DNA of 64,000 nt. Origin: a virus. Taxonomy: Duplodnaviria > Caudoviricetes. Both the position numbers and the translations under genes were made by a program. Shown here piece by piece: positions 41,036 through 62,384 of this stretch. Location: the IMG/VR virus record IMGVR_UViG_3300031857_000014, one strand, 5' to 3'. The first letter of the stretch is position 1. Each line of letters opens with the position of its first letter. The notes under the pieces are model-generated. The model was not told the origin of the DNA, did not search any database, and saw nothing but the letters and a program-made list of their open reading frames with translations.

Positions 41036-44000
41036 TTAGTTTATATCGATATTACCAATTGCAGATAATACGGTGTATTCGTTATTTGTTGTTGTACACA
41101 ATAATTTAATTGCGTCATATGTTTGTGTTGATTGTACGTATCCTGTTGCACCTGAAGTAGAATTAACAATACCAAAATGAATTTGATGATTAGATTCTTG
41201 TGCAATTTTCCAACCTCCGGCACCAATACCAACAACTTCAATTATCGACCCAACTGATGCTGTAGAAGGTAATGTAATAATCACTTGTGACCCTGAATTA
41301 GTTATATACCCATTGTTTGTCACACCTGTTTGAGAAGATGTAATTGTTGACCAAGTAATAATACCCACACTATTTAAACTTCTTGTGTGTAAAACACCAG
41401 TGCCGTCTGTGGTAATAATATCAGTATCTGTTGATGGTTGTAATCCAACAAATTGAACAGGGTTTGTTGTTGCTGTGACAACTAAAGTATTAGCGGTCAA
41501 CCCCGCAGCAAAATATGTTTCACCCGGAACAGTTCCACCAGTAAACGTTCCACCTGAACCAGTCGTACCAGTAAAATTTACACCAAAATTTGGATATGTA
41601 CCAGTAATTTGAATGTTTGTCCCACCAGATATTGTTACTGTTTGGTCTGGCGATGTGTTGATTAATGTTATGTTACCATTAGTTGATGAACCAGATAAAC
41701 CTGTACTAGTCGTTATTGAATTAACAACATTTGTTAAATTGGAACCATCACCATATATTGTTCCACCACTTATTGTATTTGCGGTTAAACCTGCATTAAA
41801 TATTTGTCCTGATGTGAAAGTGTTTGATACATTTTCATACGCAACGTTATTATATTCTGACGATGTTAGGTGATAATATTCGCCACCGGTCCCACCTTGT
41901 ATTCCTGTTAGATCATTGTGAGATTGTACTGTTGATGGTTGAAATACTTGAGCAAACGCACTCTCAACAGTACCTGTCAAAGCCGACACTTGAACAATAA
42001 TTCTACCAGTTAAAAACGCATGTGATGTGATTAATTCGGGTAAATTAGGTTCTAACGATAATTGTGCTTCAGACACGTTATCATATTCGTCATTACCCCA
42101 AACTTCATATAAATGGTCATTTATTTCTTGACCTCTAAAATACCAGTTAACAAGATATTTTCCTGCGGTACCAGCGATTCTATCCGTTCCATTATCGTAA
42201 AATAAATTATTCAGTGTATTTGATGTTGTTGTATATGTCCATGTACCACCACTGTGAAAACTTTGAAAAAATACATCATCTGTACTATTAACCGCAACCA
42301 ATGTTTGTCTATTTGTACCATTCCATGCAACACCTGAAGATAAAGTCACAACACCCGTTGTCCCACTTAAACCCAAAGAAAAACCGTCTTCTCTTGCAAA
42401 CCTATCTGTGTAAATGATTCTATCGTTTAATTTATTTGGAAGACCAGCACCTTCGTTACCAAAATCTAATACGTGAACAAAATTATTTGCCCTATAAACT
42501 ATTAGGTACAATACTATATTACTACTATTGATTGTTGAGTCGTCTGTGAGAACATCGTACACCGGAGTTCCATTATTATAATCTATAACAATGTAGTTAG
42601 TATCTTCATTTGATAATGCAGGTATTCCTACACCTGTAGTTTGACCTGACACAGTGTATACTTCAACACTACCAGTAAACGCGGTATTACTATATAATGC
42701 AACTTGTGTGGTAGGGAATGTCATTGTACCATCATTATTGTTAATCCATAAGTCAGAATTAACAATCACTCCGGAATTATAATTAGATATATTATAATAA
42801 GTTGAAGCACTTATTGTATTTGCGGTTAATCCATTTGTAAAATTTGTTGCACCTGTTACTGTCCCACCCGTAAATGAAGTACCTGTCGAACCTGTAAAAT
42901 TTACACCAAAGTTTGGATATGCACTAACTATTTGAATTCCTGTCCCTCCGGATATTGTGATAGTTTGGTCCGGTGATGTATTAGTAATTGTTACAACACC
43001 ATTGTTTGTTGATGCCGAAATTCCTGTTCCGCCAGTCACAGAACTTACTGGTAAATTACTGTATGTCGATGCGCTTATTGTATTTGCCGTTAAACCACCA
43101 GTAAAATTCGTTGGACCTGATACAGTACCACCTGTGAATGTTCCACTTGATGTACCACCAGTTAATCCGGATAAAGGATATGTGTGAACAACACCAGTCG
43201 AGTCAATACTCAAAATCAAATTATCTGTAGTACTTCCAGTTAATCCTTGAATCCTAATAGGATTTGTACTACCTGAAATGTGTAATTTATTTGTTGGATT
43301 TCTTACACCAATACCTATTGTTTGTCCTGAAGTCAAAACTAATAAATTAGAATTAGCATCCCAATTATCATTTTGTGGTGTAACACCAAAAATTAATGGC
43401 CACCCCTCAGCACTAACGTTAGTTGAGTCGGTATGAATATAATGTGCTTTAGTTAAGTTATCTCCAACAAAAAGTAATGAATTCGCTATGTTATTTGCAG
43501 CAAATTGAAACGCATATCCATAACCAGAAGGATTTCCATTAGGTGTAAGTGCAACCGATACTCCGTAATTGGTTTCTTTTGATATTACTGTCAAATAATC
43601 TATGAATCCAGATGAAGTAGAACTTAATGTTGTATATTGTAAATCGAATGTATTACCACTTATAAAAGGTGCGTTCAAATTACCAAACACATTTACTTCA
43701 TTTTGGTTTACATTTAAAATATCACTTCTATTAAAATCGTCAGTACCATTACCGATTACAAATAATGAATTAGTATTACCTGTGAGATTATATTTTCCGG
43801 AAGCATGTTGACCTTCACCATCCGCATGTGTACCAATACCTTCAGAATGAGAATAATTACCATTAGCTCGTGTAGATAAACCTTCAGAATGTGAACCTAT
43901 ACCGTTAGATATATTTGTACAACCAGTAACAGAACTTAATATAACACCACTCCAATTATTCGTAAAAATAACATTTGATTCACCTGCTCCGGAATCGAAA

Positions 44001-47000
44001 ATTGCTTTGTCTATATAGTATGGTCCATAATAACATAAATTAACATCAAAAGAATTAAATATTAACCTACTTACTATCGAACCATCGGGTATTGATGACC
44101 AATCACCAATTATTCTAATTGTCGATTCATCTAACCAATCACCACTATATGATTCATAAGTGACACCTGAAACATCAATTCTAAAATATGTTAAAGGATT
44201 ATTCACTAATGGTTCAAAAGTATTTGAACCGTCAATAAAATATCCCGCACCTTCGGAATGTGAATATAAACCCACTGAATTTGTATAATAACCCTCTGAA
44301 TGAGAATATTCACCATTAGAATCAGTATTAAAACCTTCGGCATGTGAATAATTACCATTAGAATCATTATATGAACCTTCAGCATGTGAATGAGAACCTG
44401 GTGATCTTGAGAAATGACCTTCAGAATGTGAATATGAGCCGTTAGATTGTGTTTGTTCACCTTCACTATGTGAATAAGAACCATTTGCTATAGTACTATT
44501 CCCTTCAGAATGAGATCCGGTACCAAAAGCGGTAGACGAACCTTCCGCGTGAGAATAAATACCAATCGCACCTGAACTTACACCTTCTGAATGAGAATAA
44601 GCACCACTAGCAGTTGTACTTAATCCTTGTGCATGTGATAAAATACCACTTGGATTATTACTAGGTGCCCCTTGTTTAAATTTTTCAAGTATTGATAATG
44701 TTGATGCTGTTGTTCCTGTAAATGTTAATGATAATTCATTTTGATTTACTGTTCTAGGACTTGACAAAGTACCGTTACCGGTATATAAAGTATTTGGTAA
44801 ATTATTGTAAGTCGATGCACTTATTGTATTTGCAATTAAACCACCAGTAAAACTTGTTGACCCTGTAACAGTACCTCCACTTAATGGAAGATAAGGGAAT
44901 GATGTTTGACCTGTGTAGTTTACCCCAAAATTTGGATATGTTCCTGCAATCTGAATATTTGTTCCACCTGTAATTGTTACAGTTCTATCCGGAGATGTGT
45001 TTGTAACTGTTACAACACCATTACTTGTTGATGCTGAAATTCCTGTCCCACCAGTAACAGAACTTACTGGTAAATTACTGTATGTCGATGCAGATATTGT
45101 TGTTGCAGTTAAACCTTGTAATGACGTGTTACCACCAATATTCAAAGTGTTTCCGAATATAGATGTTCCTGAAAACGCACCATCCGCCCTTATGAATGAG
45201 GTAACAACATTACTTGAATTAACACCCTCTATTAAATTCGTTACCGAATCACCTGATATTGTACCATTTTTTATTGATAAACCATCTAATGTTGAATTAA
45301 TTGTGATTTCAGGATTAGATGAGTTATTATACGCTTGTTGTAAAGTTGTTGTTGATGTTCCACCCGCAGCGCCAATTAATTCACCAAATTTTGATACTGA
45401 GAAAAATTGAGCCTTACTTGTATCATTTAATTCAGTACAACTGCTTAAAACAGAAAGAATACCAATTAAAATACCATTATCTCTAAAATTGGGGAATGTA
45501 ACAAATGTTTCGTTTTGTAGTGCAGCAACAGCAGCCGCCAATTGGTTATACTCCTGTTGTCCGTATTGAATTCTTATTTGACCGTTTTGTAATAAATAAA
45601 TTCTTTGATTTGTTGCCTTTACACCAGTTATTGGTGTAATTACACCATTAACATCCTTATTTGATGGGTCAATTACTGTCGTATTCGACGCCGTTCCACC
45701 TGTTCGAGTTCTGTATTGAAAGGTTGTTGGACTTTGACTATTAATTGTTAAACTATTCGGATTTAATTTGTTTGTAATGTATCCAATACCAAGACCATAT
45801 AATGTACCTGCAGAAGTATTAAATGTTAAATTGGCACCATTATCGGATGGTATAACACCATCATTAATCAATTTAATCGAGGTAAACATATCCCTTAATT
45901 GGGATAGTGGTGATAATACAGAATCAGGTTCGTTAAATGTATTAATTAAAAACTGTTTATTTCCGTGACCAAACTTTCCAAGATATATGTTTTGTCTTCT
46001 TTGTTGTGGCGTTGGAAAACTTGTTTGTTGTGTTATTGTTGATGCACTTGTAAGTAATACATATGTTTCTGTTGCAGTAGAATAATATAATGAGGTGTTA
46101 CCTGTAGAACCAGAATATATAATAAGTTGAATTGTTGGATTTGCTGGTGCTGTCACATTATCAATTATCCAACCCTCAACCTCACCGACACTAAATGTTG
46201 TTCCTGATGGGTTATCAATACTAAGTCCACCGAATTGGAAAACACCGGTGGAACTATTATTAGCAGCCAATATATTATTTTCTTGAGTCGTAATAATTGT
46301 TCCCTCAATTTCATTTAATATTGTAACTTGTAATTTACCATTAGATGAATTATCTAAAACGTGACCGACTTCACAAGTTCTGCCTGTATAAAATAGGTCG
46401 GAATAACTCGCGAATCCACCCGCAACATGTTGAGATAAATAAACCTGTTCACCAATACTAAATCCTGTTAAATTAATATCTCTAACGACACCAAAAACAG
46501 TCATAAAACCAAATGAACCATTTGGTATATCATGAGTTGCAATACCTGATATTTGAAATTGTACCGCATCTCCACCCGTTCCGATTGCTAATGATACGGT
46601 TGGTGTACCTGAAATTGCACCTGTTATATGTAATGCCTGTCCATTATTTATTTGAACCCCTAAATTATTATAAATTCTAACTAAACTTTCTTGACCTAAA
46701 TTAACAGTTACATCATTACTTGGTGTTATTGGTTTGTATGATAAAGCATTTTCATTTGAGTCGTAATATAGTGTTCCTCCTGTTGGTGACGGTACGGTTG
46801 GTGTAGTATCAAAATCAATATAATTCACTGATAACCCACTCGTAAAAGTTGTGTTACCAAATACAGTTCCTCCAGAAAGTGAAAGAAAGTTTCCTGACGC
46901 ACCAGAAACAGGACCCCAATTAGCATTACCATTTGAATCACATGTTAATACGTAACCATTTATTTCTGTTCCGTTAGAATAAGTAAAACCACTGTTTATA

Positions 47001-47131
47001 GTTAACCCTGATAAAAAAGTTGGGTTAATTGGTATATCACCACCAATTCTATAAACAATTCCCGTACTTAAATCTGATTGAAGAACATAATCGAAACTAT
47101 CTTTAATTAACTGATTCCTAATATCTGACAT
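41036..47131 (-). CDS. 2031-aa tail fibre/adhesin with YadA-head-like and internal repeats
   Basis: More than 10 G-x-x-SH-[AS]-EG repeats, the LFVIGNG neck motif, repeated GGTV.G.T.F..GLTANTISASTY and TSPD.TVTI.GGT.IQI. Confidence 0.8.
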   Translation of the reverse strand: MSDIRNQLIKDSFDYVLQSDLSTGIVYRIGGDIPINPTFLSGLTINSGFTYSNGTEINGYVLTCDSNGNANWGPVSGASGNFLSLSGGTVFGNTTFTSGLSVNYIDFDTTPTVPSPTGGTLYYDSNENALSYKPITPSNDVTVNLGQESLVRIYNNLGVQINNGQALHITGAISGTPTVSLAIGTGGDAVQFQISGIATHDIPNGSFGFMTVFGVVRDINLTGFSIGEQVYLSQHVAGGFASYSDLFYTGRTCEVGHVLDNSSNGKLQVTILNEIEGTIITTQENNILAANNSSTGVFQFGGLSIDNPSGTTFSVGEVEGWIIDNVTAPANPTIQLIIYSGSTGNTSLYYSTATETYVLLTSASTITQQTSFPTPQQRRQNIYLGKFGHGNKQFLINTFNEPDSVLSPLSQLRDMFTSIKLINDGVIPSDNGANLTFNTSAGTLYGLGIGYITNKLNPNSLTINSQSPTTFQYRTRTGGTASNTTVIDPSNKDVNGVITPITGVKATNQRIYLLQNGQIRIQYGQQEYNQLAAAVAALQNETFVTFPNFRDNGILIGILSVLSSCTELNDTSKAQFFSVSKFGELIGAAGGTSTTTLQQAYNNSSNPEITINSTLDGLSIKNGTISGDSVTNLIEGVNSSNVVTSFIRADGAFSGTSIFGNTLNIGGNTSLQGLTATTISASTYSNLPVSSVTGGTGISASTSNGVVTVTNTSPDRTVTITGGTNIQIAGTYPNFGVNYTGQTSFPYLPLSGGTVTGSTSFTGGLIANTISASTYNNLPNTLYTGNGTLSSPRTVNQNELSLTFTGTTASTLSILEKFKQGAPSNNPSGILSHAQGLSTTASGAYSHSEGVSSGAIGIYSHAEGSSTAFGTGSHSEGNSTIANGSYSHSEGEQTQSNGSYSHSEGHFSRSPGSHSHAEGSYNDSNGNYSHAEGFNTDSNGEYSHSEGYYTNSVGLYSHSEGAGYFIDGSNTFEPLVNNPLTYFRIDVSGVTYESYSGDWLDESTIRIIGDWSSIPDGSIVSRLIFNSFDVNLCYYGPYYIDKAIFDSGAGESNVIFTNNWSGVILSSVTGCTNISNGIGSHSEGLSTRANGNYSHSEGIGTHADGEGQHASGKYNLTGNTNSLFVIGNGTDDFNRSDILNVNQNEVNVFGNLNAPFISGNTFDLQYTTLSSTSSGFIDYLTVISKETNYGVSVALTPNGNPSGYGYAFQFAANNIANSLLFVGDNLTKAHYIHTDSTNVSAEGWPLIFGVTPQNDNWDANSNLLVLTSGQTIGIGVRNPTNKLHISGSTNPIRIQGLTGSTTDNLILSIDSTGVVHTYPLSGLTGGTSSGTFTGGTVSGPTNFTGGLTANTISASTYSNLPVSSVTGGTGISASTNNGVVTITNTSPDQTITISGGTGIQIVSAYPNFGVNFTGSTGTSFTGGTVTGATNFTNGLTANTISASTYYNISNYNSGVIVNSDLWINNNDGTMTFPTTQVALYSNTAFTGSVEVYTVSGQTTGVGIPALSNEDTNYIVIDYNNGTPVYDVLTDDSTINSSNIVLYLIVYRANNFVHVLDFGNEGAGLPNKLNDRIIYTDRFAREDGFSLGLSGTTGVVTLSSGVAWNGTNRQTLVAVNSTDDVFFQSFHSGGTWTYTTTSNTLNNLFYDNGTDRIAGTAGKYLVNWYFRGQEINDHLYEVWGNDEYDNVSEAQLSLEPNLPELITSHAFLTGRIIVQVSALTGTVESAFAQVFQPSTVQSHNDLTGIQGGTGGEYYHLTSSEYNNVAYENVSNTFTSGQIFNAGLTANTISGGTIYGDGSNLTNVVNSITTSTGLSGSSTNGNITLINTSPDQTVTISGGTNIQITGTYPNFGVNFTGTTGSGGTFTGGTVPGETYFAAGLTANTLVVTATTNPVQFVGLQPSTDTDIITTDGTGVLHTRSLNSVGIITWSTITSSQTGVTNNGYITNSGSQVIITLPSTASVGSIIEVVGIGAGGWKIAQESNHQIHFGIVNSTSGATGYVQSTQTYDAIKLLCTTTNNEYTVLSAIGNIDIN

Positions 47132-47170
47132 GTCATAATTTTAAGCATATTTATCTATATAGTAAATATT

Positions 47171-49037: not shown

Positions 49038-49127
49038 TAAGATTTTTTATTTTTAAAATTTATTTCCTATATTTTTATTAGTTCTTTGAAATGCCTGGGT
49101 GGTGAAATAGGTATACACGCAAGACTT

Positions 49128-49822
49128 TAATCTTTTTTGTGTTCTGTTTATACTTATAATATATGAATATAAAATACACAAAAGAATTTTTGGAACCAAT
49201 AGTTAAGGAATGTGGTTCAATTAGACAAGTTTTAATAAAACTAGGGTTGAGAGAAGCAGGAGGAAATTATGAAAATATCAAAACTAGAATTCAATTATTC
49301 GGTATTGATACATCACATTTTCACGGAATGGTTTGGAATAAAGGTAAAGAGTGGTCAAAAGTTAAGGATTTAACTCCTAAATTAATAGAACACTCAACTT
49401 ACACTACAGGATTACCAACCTCAACAAATAGATTGAGAAAACAATTATTAAAACTTGGATATAAAAACCACATTTGTGAATTATGTGAATTAACTGAATG
49501 GAGAGGAGAAAAAATCCCATTGGAGTTACATCACATAAATGGTAATAGGTTTGATAATAGGATAGAAAACTTACAATTTTTATGTCCGAATTGTCACTCA
49601 TTTACTGACAACTATAGGAAACGAAAAAATTGAGTGCACAAAGAGAAATCTTTGATGTAGAACTCCGTAAATTCGGTGAACCCTTTAAGATGGGAATACC
49701 GAGCCAAACTCGTAAGAGAAGGTGTAGAGACTAGACACGGAGCACCTAAATCGTAAGATATGGTGAAGGTATAGTCCAGACCACAAACAACTTTAGTTGG
49801 TAGTGAAAACTATAGTGGTAAG
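49128..49822 (+). mobile_element. group I intron (IC3-like, tRNA-Leu type) with an ORF in the P1 loop
   Basis: IGS GAGT (49632-49635) pairs with exon ACTT with a terminal U.G. P AAATTCGGTGAA, Q GGGAATACCGAGCC, R GTAGAGACTAGAC, S ATAGTCC; P3 CTCCGT/ACGGAG; terminal G at 49822. Confidence 0.92.
49163..49633 (+). CDS. intron-encoded HNH homing endonuclease
   Basis: CELC...LELHHINGNRFDNRIENLQFLCPNCH. Its TGA stop overlaps the intron IGS. Confidence 0.92.
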   Translation: MNIKYTKEFLEPIVKECGSIRQVLIKLGLREAGGNYENIKTRIQLFGIDTSHFHGMVWNKGKEWSKVKDLTPKLIEHSTYTTGLPTSTNRLRKQLLKLGYKNHICELCELTEWRGEKIPLELHHINGNRFDNRIENLQFLCPNCHSFTDNYRKRKN

Positions 49823-49913
49823 AAAATCTTGTGACCAGCAATGGTCGTGCGGGTTCGACCCCCGCCCCAGGTACAAACACTATTGTTCTTTGACATATAA
49901 GGAGAAACAAATT

Positions 49914-50255: not shown

Positions 50256-50327
50256 GGTCCTGTAATTTAATGGATAAAATATCTGCCTTCTAAGCAGACT
50301 ATGGTAGTTCGATTCTACCCGGGACTA
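50256..50327 (+). tRNA. trnR: tRNA-Arg(UCU)
   Basis: GGTCCTG/CGGGACT acceptor, TCTGC-CTTCTAA-GCAGA, GGTAG-TTCGATT-CTACC. Confidence 0.9.
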
Positions 50328-50342
50328 CTAAAAGAATTAATT

Positions 50343-50534
50343 ATGAAAAATTTAGAAAACATCTTTATGATAATTGCAACGGTAGGTGCGTTATTATCAA
50401 TGATTGCATGTATATATACCGGACAATCATGGACATGGCAATTATCAACCATTTTGTGGATTTTTGTTGCGTATATGAAACAAAAAACAATAACAAGACA
50501 AGAAAATTTAATCAAAAAAATAACTTCAAAATGA
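50343..50534 (+). CDS. small two-TM membrane protein
   Basis: Start MKNLENIF at 50343; two hydrophobic segments. Confidence 0.65.
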   Translation: MKNLENIFMIIATVGALLSMIACIYTGQSWTWQLSTILWIFVAYMKQKTITRQENLIKKITSK

Positions 50535-51073
50535 AATACAAAATTACATTAGGAGGTCGTGGAGCAGATATTTGGGTACACAGACTAAATGAAGAACAAC
50601 ACAAGAGACTTAAAGAAGTTGAATCGTCACTGAATAGTATGGATTTAGATGACATTGCAAAACTGATTGATAGAGATTATGTTGATGATGTAGATGATGT
50701 CTTTTTTGGTGTTTACGACAATACGGGAGATTTTGTAATCCAAACGTTTAATGAAAAAGATGAAATGATTTTCGATTCATTATCTGACGATGATTGGTAT
50801 TTCGATGATGAAACAAGAAATGAGTATGAAAATTATGATTCTGTTTTTGAAGGTGACGACCCTACATTATTTGTTGAATCATATTCAAAAGGAACTTTTT
50901 TTGAGTTTGAACTTGAGACAGAAGAAGAATTTGACCCAACAAAATTGTCACCCATAATTCTTGAAGTTGGCGAAAGATTTGAAATGATTACAGGTCTAGC
51001 ATACAATGGTGAAGAACTTGAAAAAGAAATTGGTGATTATTGGGGTAAGGGTTATTATTTCCATTTAATATAA
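50531..51073 (+). CDS. very acidic hypothetical protein
   Basis: Start MKYKITLGGRG at 50531 (ATGA overlap); D/E-rich. Confidence 0.75.
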   Translation: MKYKITLGGRGADIWVHRLNEEQHKRLKEVESSLNSMDLDDIAKLIDRDYVDDVDDVFFGVYDNTGDFVIQTFNEKDEMIFDSLSDDDWYFDDETRNEYENYDSVFEGDDPTLFVESYSKGTFFEFELETEEEFDPTKLSPIILEVGERFEMITGLAYNGEELEKEIGDYWGKGYYFHLI

Positions 51074-51078
51074 TTAAG

Positions 51079-51212
51079 TAAGGGTTGAACGGGGAATGAA
51101 GATAATATAGATACCTGTTGGTGGGTGGGCTATATCTTCGGAGTTGAAACTAACGTTAGTAATGCCGTTCATAAAAGAAGTTGTCCACTCGACCATCCTC
51201 TTCTTTCCCTTA
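51079..51212 (+). ncRNA. unassigned structured RNA (~134 nt)
   Basis: Nested helices TAAGGG/CCCTTA, TGAACGG/CCGTTCA, GAAGAT..ATAG/CTATATCTTC, AAAGAAG/CTTCTTT. Confidence 0.6.
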
Positions 51213-51217
51213 TTTTT

Positions 51218-51289
51218 GGTCTTGTAGTTAATCGGCTATAATATCCCCCTGTCACGGGGAAGTGCCGGGTTCGATTCCCGGTGAGACCG
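51218..51289 (+). tRNA. trnD: tRNA-Asp(GUC)
   Basis: TCCCC-CTGTCAC-GGGGA, CCGGG-TTCGATT-CCCGG, G discriminator. Confidence 0.93.
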
Positions 51290-51419
51290 CAAAAATGTAT
51301 CCGCAGGCCACGGAGTCGTAGTTCCTCTTCCTCCTCTGATATAAAAATCATGAAAGAGTCAGATCGTAAGCTGAATAGGTTGGCAACTTTCCTACTGACA
51401 TAGAATAAAAGTTGCAAAC

Positions 51420-51539
51420 AGTCAGGTGGCGGAATTTCTAAGCATGACGAATAGTTTTATACTACGAGGATGATTGCAGAGAATTGGTTATGGCCCGCTC
51501 AGTAATGAGAAAGCACAGGTTCGAATCCTGTCCTGACTA
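51420..51539 (+). ncRNA. tRNA-shaped RNA with an expanded D arm and no anticodon loop
   Basis: AGTCAGG/CCTGACT+A acceptor, ACAGG-TTCGAAT-CCTGT T arm, GCGG/CCGC D stem around a 62-nt loop, and a GTAA-capped mini hairpin in place of the anticodon arm. Confidence 0.75.
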
Positions 51540-51657
51540 CTGATTCAGTTTGCCCGGGGTAACGGATTGATAGGGAAACCTTACAATCTTCTGTAATCAA
51601 AATCCAAACATTGTCTCACTGGTGTTTGGGCTAAATGTGAGAAAAAAACGGGAACAT

Positions 51658-51729
51658 GCCGCCATGGTCAAGGGGTTAAGACGTGTCCCTTTCACGGACA
51701 AATCACGGGTTCGATTCCCGTTGGTGGTA
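51658..51729 (+). tRNA. trnE: tRNA-Glu(UUC)
   Basis: TGTCC-CTTTCAC-GGACA, ACGGG-TTCGATT-CCCGT. Confidence 0.92.
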
Positions 51730-51735
51730 CTTTCC

Positions 51736-51835
51736 GGTGAGCAGAAGACGAAAGACAACACATCGTATATGTGGCCACATTGCGATTGAATCAAGTAGAC
51801 ATACAGAAAGGATTAGCTACCCTTTCCGCTCACCA
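51736..51835 (+). ncRNA. unassigned 100-nt RNA closed by a 7-bp acceptor-like stem
   Basis: GGTGAGC/GCTCACC+A, internal GAAAGG...CCTTTC hairpin, no TTCRA loop. Confidence 0.5.
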
Positions 51836-51839
51836 ATAT

Positions 51840-51913
51840 GGACCTATAGCTCAGCAGGTTAGAGCAATTGACTCATAATCAATAGGTGCTTGGTTCGAAC
51901 CCAAGTGGGTCCA
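51840..51913 (+). tRNA. tRNA with CAU anticodon, Ile2 (lysidine type) or elongator Met
   Basis: GGACCTA/TGGGTCC, ATTGA-CTCATAA-TCAAT. G1-C72 paired, so not an initiator; the acceptor resembles Ile2 tRNAs. Confidence 0.9.
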
Positions 51914-51949
51914 CAACTTTTTAAGTATTTATTTAAAAAGAAGGTCATT

Positions 51950-52609: not shown

Positions 52610-53515
52610 AAATATTATCCATTTAGGATTCACAGTTTTAATCTTCGGATTATTTCTGAAGTTCTAATAAAAGATAATTGGGCGGTCTATAGTCCATTCA
52701 CCTTCGGGTGACAGATACCTTCGGGTATTTGAAAATAAACTATGAAAGTAGTATAAAGTGACTTACTTTGGTTGAAGTAGGTTGCGGTTCTCGAAAGAGA
52801 ACTCGAGTAGACAAGCGAGATATCATTTAATCTTGAGTACTGAGGGTGACACTGTAGGGAAAGTGGTTGAATGACTTGGCGATGTGGGTCGTCAGGTTGA
52901 GGTGGGAACACCAATAAGAATAACTCGTAGAATACATGCAAGAAATAAGGTCATCCTACTTTATAATTGCGTTGTTCAATATTAGAGTTGATTTAAAACC
53001 GAAAGGTATGATGATGTACAGATGGTGCTGTTATTATCCTTAATCTTTGTCCTACCAAGGACTTGATTATGAAGTTGACTTGAAATATGGAGACAGGGAT
53101 GTTTCAGAGGGTAGTTCAGTATTTTCTCGTTCAAAAGATGGGAGAACTGGTGACGGACCACTACCTTCAAAATCCACAAACCAAAACTTTTTGATTGTAT
53201 TCAAAAATATTAAATCAATAAAGAAAAAGTGTCCGTCAGTTGTCAGAAACAGGTGACTACACAGTCGTGAGGGGTTCACGGCCACAAAGGGTCTCAAGCC
53301 CGATGTGATTTTTAAGAAAGTTCTCTAATCCCGCAAGGATGAGTTGGGGTGGCAACCTCGAAGAGCAGCAAGTATTAAGAGAGTATTTGACAACTTTAGG
53401 ATTGGTTAATCTAATTGACCGTCACTGATTGGTACTACTCAAAAGGTAGTGGATAAGGGAAGAACAAATAATGTCCCCAAGTCAATCAATAGAACTTGTA
53501 ATCTCAGAGTTTCTT
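52610..53515 (+). ncRNA. large ornate non-coding RNA (~0.9 kb), GOLLD-like candidate
   Basis: No credible CDS, higher GC, cUUCGg hairpins (52698-52711, 52715-52728), GAAA/GCAA tetraloops, and 5'/3' end pairing AAGTTCTA(52659)/TAGAACTT(53490). Adjacent to the tRNA cluster. Family assignment untested. Confidence 0.75.
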
Positions 53516-61966: not shown

Positions 61967-62384
61967 GGGCCTGCCTTGGTTTTGACGGACATTTGTATGG
62001 TAAATGGGCATGTAGTCGGATGTCATCTACGACTTAAATCTACGGTGGTAAAATTCAAACGGCAACGTTTACAACAACATGGAAATTGCAGGTCTTCTTG
62101 CAACTTCTAAAGTAGCTGCTTAATTAAGTACCTACTCTCGGGTCGGTTAGGACATATAACCTAGGAACAGAAGTCCATGAGGTTTAACACCTACCACGTG
62201 ATTCAGTTCAGAAAAGTGTGTTGGAGCAAATCAGACGGCTCCTTAAATCCGGTTTGGGGATTGTTGGAAGTAGTTATCTAAATCTATAACTTCCTATTTG
62301 TTGATTATGAATAATCAAATAAACATGTAGTCCATTTATTGTTCGGTGTTTCGGACAGCGGTTCGACTCCGCTCAGGTCCACCA
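61967..62384 (+). ncRNA. ssrA: tmRNA; predicted tag (A)GNVYNNMEIAGLLATSKVAA at 62061-62123
   Basis: GGGCCTG/CAGGTCC-ACCA acceptor with G3.U70, TTGACGG near the 5' end, GCGG-TTCGACT-CCGC T arm, internal ORF ending AA-stop. Confidence 0.95.

Follow-up and report, generated by a model that had tools for sequence, protein, structure and literature searches.

A phage tRNA-Leu(UAA) gene split by a group I intron that carries an HNH gene in its P1 loop

Introduction

The group I intron of tRNA-Leu(UAA) genes is the textbook 'ancient' intron of bacteria and plastids, and is usually described as immobile and devoid of open reading frames (ORFs). Here we analyse a 64,000-nucleotide (nt) stretch of phage DNA (Caudoviricetes; IMG/VR record IMGVR_UViG_3300031857_000014), henceforth the window, in which a tRNA-Leu(UAA) gene at positions 49093-49873 of the plus strand is split by an intron that carries an HNH endonuclease gene in the loop of its helix P1. 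With the cyanobacterial tRNA-Leu intron it shares the gene and the site (CUU/intron/AAAA), a short P1 with a U.G wobble, a guide sequence starting with GAG, a GAAA loop on P2, a compact P3-P9 and the omega-G, and 13 cyanobacterial examples have the same 5' layout, AAAnnAATTGAGCC.

Group I introns with an HNH gene in a peripheral loop are familiar from phages, as in the I-HmuI-type, I-TevIII and I-PfoP3I introns (PMC3428280, PMC3984707), and the mechanism that the window's intron would be expected to share with the I-HmuI type is one in which the enzyme nicks or cuts the intron-less allele and repair copies the intron in. According to a 2014 review, all phage introns known to that date were in protein-coding genes, despite the many tRNA genes of phages (PMC3984707). 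For bacteria, 5,292 tRNA group I introns, including Leu.3Ug, have been catalogued, of which those above about 400 base pairs (bp) 'may contain' genes (Williams 2020). A literature search of incomplete coverage, which attests to absence of evidence only, found no paper on group I introns of phage tRNA genes or on HNH genes in tRNA-Leu introns. The window's element belongs to a large family that is frequent in public data and, it seems, has yet to be described in a paper.

Results

A tRNA-Leu(UAA) gene interrupted at the classical site

With introns allowed, ARAGORN called a tRNA-Leu(taa) at 49093-49874 with a 695-nt intron (gactt-intron-aaaat in the text of the call) and placed the exon ends at U34 (49127) and A35 (49823). 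Joined in silico, the exons (49093-49127 and 49823-49873) gave an 87-nt class II cloverleaf with the junction CAAGACTT/AAAATCTTG, and the ligated exons are predicted to read CAAGACUU/AAAAUCUUG across the joint. The spliced tRNA has a G1.U72 pair, a long variable arm, the anticodon loop CUUAAAA and A73, and CCA is not encoded. Since the joined exons fold as a cloverleaf, the intron lies between U34 and A35 and its last base is G (49822, the omega-G). The initial annotation, made from the sequence alone, had placed the intron at this classical site, and the ARAGORN call and the spliced cloverleaf agree, with 49127 and 49823 as the last and first exon bases. Direct reading pairs U49127, at position -1, with G49632 of the guide in a U.G wobble; wobble, omega-G and guide are all invariant across relatives. 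Default ARAGORN and Rfam scans of the window reported nothing at 49093-49873. The parts of the gene are as follows.

49093-49127 (+): 5' exon of tRNA-Leu(UAA), with acceptor, D arm, 5' strand of the anticodon stem, C32, U33 and U34; ARAGORN with introns allowed
49124-49127 (+): exon strand of P1, ACTT, the last 4 nt of the 5' exon; invariant in all relatives
49128-49822 (+): group I intron, 695 nt, IC3-like, omega-G at 49822; ARAGORN, Rfam and covariation
49823-49873 (+): 3' exon, with A35, A36, 3' strand of the anticodon stem, variable arm, T arm, acceptor and A73; variable arm and T stem covary

A group I core upheld by covariation

The Rfam model Intron_gpI matched positions 49570-49799 in a search of a 1.2-kb stretch (44.3 bits, E 1e-9); in Rfam scans of the whole window, at the gathering threshold or at E 0.01, the intron was not reported, the match being lost to filters. 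Helices P2-P9 were drawn by hand from homology with IC3 introns and then tested on an alignment (A2) of 31 distinct related introns that extends from the guide sequence to the 3' end of the tRNA. Standard pairs were present in 98.6% of the 1,700 cells for these helices, compared to 32-43% in a control in which the 3' partners were slid by 1-3 columns. Both sides had changed in a compensatory manner in 31 of the 55 pairs, the observed values being reached by none of 500 shuffles, and at least one compensatory pair was found in each of P2, P3, P4, P5, P6, P7, P8, P9 and P9b. The variable arm and T stem of the tRNA, which served as an internal control, also covaried. The group I core P3-P9, including the P3/P7 pseudoknot, is backed by covariation, and chance falls far short of explaining an arrangement that dozens of diverged contigs share, with every helix showing compensatory changes.

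Inspection of 49638-49819 revealed a compact IC3 periphery with GAAA loops on P2 and P9b, an 11-nt receptor in P8 and no P5abc, in line with the IC3-type core that had been suggested at the outset. The L2 GAAA loop would dock into the P8 receptor, and other tertiary contacts may be made as well. The elements of the core are:

49632-49635 (+): internal guide sequence GAGT, pairing with exon ACTT; GAGTGC invariant in 31 relatives
49638-49655 (+): P2 with GAAA tetraloop; compensatory changes at all 7 pairs
49663-49742 (+): P3 region, strands 49663-67 with 49738-42, enclosing P4, P5, P6 and the 5' strand of P7; at least one compensatory pair per helix
49672-77 with 49698-703 (+): P4; covariation
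49681-83 with 49692-94 (+): P5; covariation
49709-11 with 49716-18 (+): P6; covariation
49727-33 (+): 5' strand of P7; covariation
49743-49765 (+): P8 with 11-nt-type tetraloop receptor (CCTAAA...TATGG) and GTAA loop; covariation, receptor by sequence inspection
49772-49777 (+): 3' strand of P7, TAGTCC, forming the pseudoknot with 49727-49733; near-invariant, one compensatory case
49780-49819 (+): P9 (ACCAC/GTGGT) with inner hairpins P9a and P9b, GAAA loop on P9b; covariation

An HNH gene inserted in loop L1

Where ORF-bearing introns have about 500 nt between exon ACTT and the guide, nine ORF-less sisters, whose introns are 195-220 nt long, have 8-10 nt (e.g. TAACTATTT) before GAGTGC and P2. 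Given this 8-10-nt L1 and the same GAGTGC guide in the sisters, the HNH cassette is an insertion in L1, which bears out the early proposal of some 500 nt inserted there. The catalytic core is undisturbed by the ORF, whose place is a peripheral loop. Cassette flanks are of several different kinds among the ORF-bearing introns, and in three other lineages the first 20-30 nt of the intron pair with the last ORF codons to form an extended P1 (z about -4 against shuffles).

The initial annotation had also read the 5' end of the intron as a mimic of the 3' exon, as expected of a target-like site that had been invaded. This was rejected: among relatives, changes in the 3' exon stem go with those in its 5' partner, and the intron start does not follow; in the ORF-less sisters, moreover, the L1 sequences are unrelated. 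The features of L1 are:

49128-49631 (+): loop L1, 504 nt owing to the ORF cassette; by comparison with ORF-less sisters (8-10 nt there)
49151-49157 (+): TACTTAT, 5 nt before the ORF start, a member of the phage's recurrent TA[CT]TTAT; candidate internal promoter or initiation signal
49163-49633 (+): HNH endonuclease gene, 156 amino acids, with CxxC...CxxC zinc ligands, HH...N...H motif and a conserved N-terminal helical domain

The ORF at 49163-49633 is the sole long one in the intron. Its product matched Pfam HNH_3 (26 bits, above the cut-off of 24.8) and phrog_10822, 'HNH endonuclease' (E 8e-45). C105, C108, H124, N136, C141, C144 and H145 are invariant in 19 homologues, as is much of the N-terminal 60 residues, and the ratio of non-synonymous to synonymous substitution rates (dN/dS) was 0.07-0.22 against nine relatives, with dS up to saturation. 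Taken with the covariation, these substitution patterns show that ribozyme, tRNA and ORF are all under purifying selection. In an AlphaFold model (mean predicted local distance difference test, pLDDT, 82.6), a helical domain at the N terminus is followed by an HNH fold at the C terminus. Foldseek of this model against the PDB gave no match at E <= 0.001, the top weak ones being HNH nucleases, and a PDB sequence search with the HNH profile returned only spurious matches to cap-binding proteins and a weak one to McrA; as these matches are all weak, the protein is without a characterised close relative.

The stop codon TGA (49631-49633, inside TTGAGT) overlaps the guide GAGT (49632-49635), as had been noted early on and can be read directly, and it does so in the window's nearest relative too. 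In most relatives the frame continues past the guide into P2 (...KNMSAR). The layout, with either arrangement of the stop, makes translation and the formation of P1/P2 mutually exclusive on one RNA molecule.

The motif upstream of the ORF is kept as TATTTAT in relatives. In the window, TA[CT]TTAT occurs within 30 nt upstream of 14 of 61 ORF starts, compared to 1.6% of random 30-mers; it has 77 occurrences, 34% of them before an ORF start compared to about 11% of random positions, and its spacing is variable. This distribution marks TA[CT]TTAT as a genuine signal that recurs upstream of ORFs in this phage, and as a candidate promoter or initiation signal, possibly of near-leaderless transcripts. 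The HNH ORF may use its copy as an internal start signal. The initial annotation had credited the ORF with a 'late-type' motif of its own; a recurrent and conserved upstream signal it is, for which 'late' is a putative label. In the form (A/G)TATTTAT(A/T) the motif recurs 0-35 nt upstream of many ORF starts on both strands, for example at 47148, 47506, 48496, 51926 and 54372.

Relatives with and without the intron or the ORF

In a tree of the intron cores, ORF-bearing and ORF-less introns are intermixed. One clade with 96-97% support unites L014 and L016, which have the ORF, with L055, L046 and L057, which lack it, at branch lengths of about 0.005, and the window pairs with L001 beside the ORF-less L063 and L094. 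Intron-less tRNA-Leu(UAA) genes with the window's exact anticodon arm were found in 85 viral contigs, and several of these share with the window the neighbouring GOLLD region at about 75% identity (71-78% in related contigs).

The closest relative found, L260, is a single contig from a metagenome scan with the upstream flank and exon. The intron is missing from it, and identity to the window is 98% in the upstream flank and 87% downstream, positions 87-200 of its reverse complement corresponding to 49093-49873; this abrupt change in identity at the tRNA points to a boundary of recombination there. Between A36 and A37 it carries a 26-nt insert that lengthens the anticodon stem (AACCG...CGGTT). 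This insert is unlike the intron and had no match in viral contigs or, by local BLAST, in any of the fetched loci; it could be a footprint, a sign of a dead gene or another type of insert. When the fetched loci were scanned for short inserts in tRNA genes, most of what emerged was ARAGORN noise. The joint and the spacing seen in one contig of run X2 are compatible with the L260 allele, and in run X13 an ORF-less intron allele is visible as joints. Judged from the tree and these alleles, both the ORF and the intron are polymorphic in being present or absent.

The HNH family in phages and bacterial chromosomes

Over 2,000 relatives of the HNH protein are present in the protein collection. All 14 homologues examined at 67% identity or above lie at the same tRNA-Leu(UAA) site, in introns of 686-695 nt, on contigs of up to 464 kb. 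A 20-nt word of the core retrieved 54 viral contigs, mostly with tRNA-Leu(UAA) and an intron that bears the ORF (553-756 nt) or lacks it (195-220 nt). Viral relatives at 30-48% identity are free-standing, 10-60 nt from intron-less tRNA-Leu genes of several anticodons (UAA, UAG, GAG, CAA) in tRNA arrays.

We surveyed bacteria in contigs from one genome per species, where more than 500 stretches encode relatives, and examined the arrangements in the best 80. The majority of these 80 lie inside chromosomal tRNA-Leu(UAA) introns, in three positions or orientations: in Bacteroidota the gene is in sense orientation in L1; in Acidobacteriota and others it is again sense, in a downstream loop; and in Gammaproteobacteria (in a Gly-Cys-Leu tRNA cluster), Acidobacteriota and one cyanobacterium it is antisense. 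Examples with the gene on the opposite strand in a downstream loop include L111, L112, L114, L119, L137, L146 and others, and L100 (Alkalinema). A free-standing HNH gene 10-35 nt upstream of an intron-less chromosomal tRNA-Leu(UAA) was found genus-wide in Hymenobacter (L097-L099, L104, L105, L122), and candidate-phyla bacteria (L140, L156, L158, L163, L174) have the same layout.

In the protein tree the window's enzyme falls in a viral L1 clade with 99% support, with free-standing viral relatives just outside, and several switches between the intronic and the free-standing state are apparent. In a tree of 92 introns, which is unrooted, has 220 usable columns and leaves deeper relations unresolved, the phage introns form their own cluster, the 13 cyanobacterial introns a separate clade with 100% support on a long branch, and the Bacteroidota chromosomal introns a third. 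The phage cluster lies apart from the cyanobacterial clade, and hence the window's intron is of the tRNA-Leu kind and apparently not a recent offshoot of the cyanobacterial intron. Of the kinship with cyanobacterial introns that had been suspected initially, membership of the tRNA-Leu kind thus stands but nesting in the cyanobacterial clade does not, within the limits of this tree. Similarly, the initial statement that such introns are generally ORF-less holds for the 13 sampled from cyanobacteria but not elsewhere, HNH-bearing ones being common in other bacteria and phages.

In some phages the anticodon loop of a tRNA-Arg-UCU gene holds an insert of about 200 nt: L004 (566-848, minus strand) and L291 (1013-1298, Microcoleus phage OR578706), the record of the latter annotating without comment a 286-nt 'tRNA-Arg' over a core that matches P7-P9 of the window. 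Group I introns therefore seem, from these sequences, to occupy further phage tRNA species.

Genome context

The window is that of a phage, encoding a major head protein, a portal, a large terminase and a Clp-type ATPase, and it was detected in public runs from lake, river and other freshwater metagenomes. Assignment of the host through the terminase was dropped, as the best matches, from Microcystis and Flavobacterium phages, are only 28-29% identical. Neither the Bacteroidota -7 motif TAnnTTTG nor Shine-Dalgarno-like words are enriched in the window; the lack of the latter is compatible with the Bacteroidota host suggested initially, which is a possible one, and also with others.

Default ARAGORN and Rfam found four tRNAs, a transfer-messenger RNA (tmRNA) and a GOLLD RNA in the window. 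The split tRNA-Leu gene is followed downstream by a loose array of tRNAs for Arg-UCU, Asp-GUC, Glu-UUC and Met-CAU, with small ORFs in between (50256-51914, plus strand). The full-length GOLLD RNA lies 3.2 kb downstream of tRNA-Leu (53107-53510, plus strand; RF02032, 326 bits, E 1e-92), and the phage tmRNA at 61967-62384 (plus strand; RF00023, 102.5 bits), uncalled by ARAGORN, has an apparent tag frame of unusual length with ...VAA at its end. An ORF of 2,031 amino acids (41036-47131, minus strand) lies immediately upstream of the tRNA region.

Discussion

The window's tRNA-Leu(UAA) gene is probably interrupted by a self-splicing homing group I intron, with a functional gene for an HNH homing endonuclease enlarging its P1 loop. 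We infer self-splicing, and likewise homing, of which the polymorphism is an indirect sign, and the enzyme is presumably specific for tRNA-Leu genes. Once the pre-tRNA is transcribed, exon ACUU would pair with guide GAGU to form P1, with the U.G wobble at the splice site, and the compact P2-P9 core would fold, stabilised by docking of the L2 GAAA loop in the P8 receptor and by the L9 GAAA loop. Guanosine-initiated splicing would then take out 49128-49822, and exon ligation would restore the anticodon loop CUUAAAA. The HNH protein would be made from the excised intron, or by way of TACTTAT, acting as an internal start signal 5 nt ahead of the ATG. In a mixed infection it would cut or nick an intron-less tRNA-Leu(UAA) gene, and repair would copy in the intron or the ORF cassette.

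Some findings weigh against this reading. The group I model did match, as the initial annotation led one to expect, but its 44.3 bits are under the gathering score of 50; with no bacterial introns in the Intron_gpI seed, and with 18-20 bits taken as the cut-off for tRNA introns by Williams (2020), that threshold is a weak criterion here. P10 has at most 2 bp. A strong helix closing L1 found no support in the window's own lineage, where the A/U-rich pairing (-12.1 kcal/mol) is not above shuffles (z -0.8), and with no convincing closing helix it is uncertain how P1 forms across 500 nt. L260 presents its 26-nt insert instead of a clean intron-less site. PDB searches yielded no solved or characterised close homologue of the HNH protein, and no cleavage site is known in this HNH family. 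No public run containing the locus is catalogued as RNA.

The intron could splice as proposed and the HNH protein nevertheless be a nuclease directed at tRNA-Leu genes in the service of the phage or of itself, for instance through marker exclusion of co-infecting phages or attack on the host's tRNA-Leu locus, with the intron loop merely its harmless parking place. This would accommodate the family members that stand free by intron-less tRNA-Leu genes of four anticodons, as well as the three positions or orientations in bacterial introns, from both of which it follows that ORF and ribozyme have partly separate histories. Intron-borne and free-standing copies are, however, two known faces of one homing biology and hard to separate, and the window's clade is tied tightly and exclusively to one intron site, which fits ordinary intron homing; we therefore regard the parking-place explanation as unlikely.

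It is very improbable that the HNH protein acts mainly as a maturase, having lost DNA cutting, for an intron whose P1 spans 500 nt. A weak closing helix in the window's lineage and strong purifying selection across the protein, including its non-catalytic N-terminal domain, would suit such a role, but the catalytic and zinc residues, needless for a pure maturase, are all invariant, and the near-identical cores of ORF-less sisters imply that the core does not depend on the HNH protein. A decaying tRNA pseudogene with a dead intron remnant, which the sub-threshold Rfam score and the failure of standard scans to detect the gene might bring to mind, is scarcely credible given that compensatory changes have kept every ribozyme helix and the variable and T arms in 31 diverged sequences, that wobble, omega-G and guide are invariant, and that the ORF is under the constraint expressed by its dN/dS.

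A homing group I intron with an HNH gene in P1, as favoured here, belongs to a wider setting. Somewhat doubtfully, one tRNA-Leu-specific HNH lineage might have moved repeatedly between two kinds of site, one of them free-standing beside tRNA-Leu genes, in phages and many bacterial phyla. If so, phage tRNA arrays would carry the 'ancient' tRNA-Leu intron from one bacterial phylum to another, with or without an endonuclease, and the family would offer a natural series of intermediates in the joining of endonuclease and ribozyme into a mobile intron. The locus and its relatives establish that group I introns do occur in phage tRNA genes, that the tRNA-Leu intron has endonuclease-bearing, apparently mobile forms, and that the same endonuclease family is also found free-standing beside its presumed target gene. 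In them, the origin of mobile introns and the horizontal spread of the tRNA-Leu intron can be studied in a natural system open to testing. Because the gene escapes tRNA and Rfam scans run with default settings, counts of phage tRNAs are too low; as one more member of a family common in public data, the window by itself adds modestly to this.

Comparison with known systems

Set beside the classical tRNA-Leu intron, the window's differs in size and content (695 nt with an HNH gene in L1, compared to 212-300 nt and no ORF in all sampled cyanobacterial introns), in its guide (GAGU, giving a 4-bp exon pairing, rather than GAGC) and in its carrier, a phage instead of a cell or plastid. The tRNA-fMet intron of Synechocystis (Bonocora & Shub 2001, as cited in PMC3984707) is likewise a group I intron of an anticodon loop, and the endonuclease it encodes is directed at the anticodon region of the tRNA gene; it differs in tRNA and insertion site and is chromosomal, not phage-borne, and its enzyme is described as being of the PD-(D/E)XK type (Zhao et al. 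2007, as cited in PMC4853749) and not HNH. The I-HmuI-type introns of phages interrupt protein-coding genes and belong to IA subgroups, in contrast to the tRNA gene and IC3-like ribozyme of the window. T4 SegB, encoded between phage tRNA genes and promoting inheritance of the tRNA region (PMC13096335, PMC2988022), can be likened to the free-standing relatives of the window's enzyme, but is a GIY-YIG endonuclease and never intron-borne, whereas the window's HNH gene is inside an intron. The bacterial chromosomal tRNA-Leu(UAA) introns with HNH genes share with the window the HNH family (40-51% identity), the tRNA and the site, and in Bacteroidota also the sense orientation in L1; their ribozyme cores fall in other clades and they are chromosomal rather than phage-borne, and, unlike the sense L1 gene of the window, the ORF of Gammaproteobacteria, Acidobacteriota and one cyanobacterium runs antisense or occupies a downstream loop.

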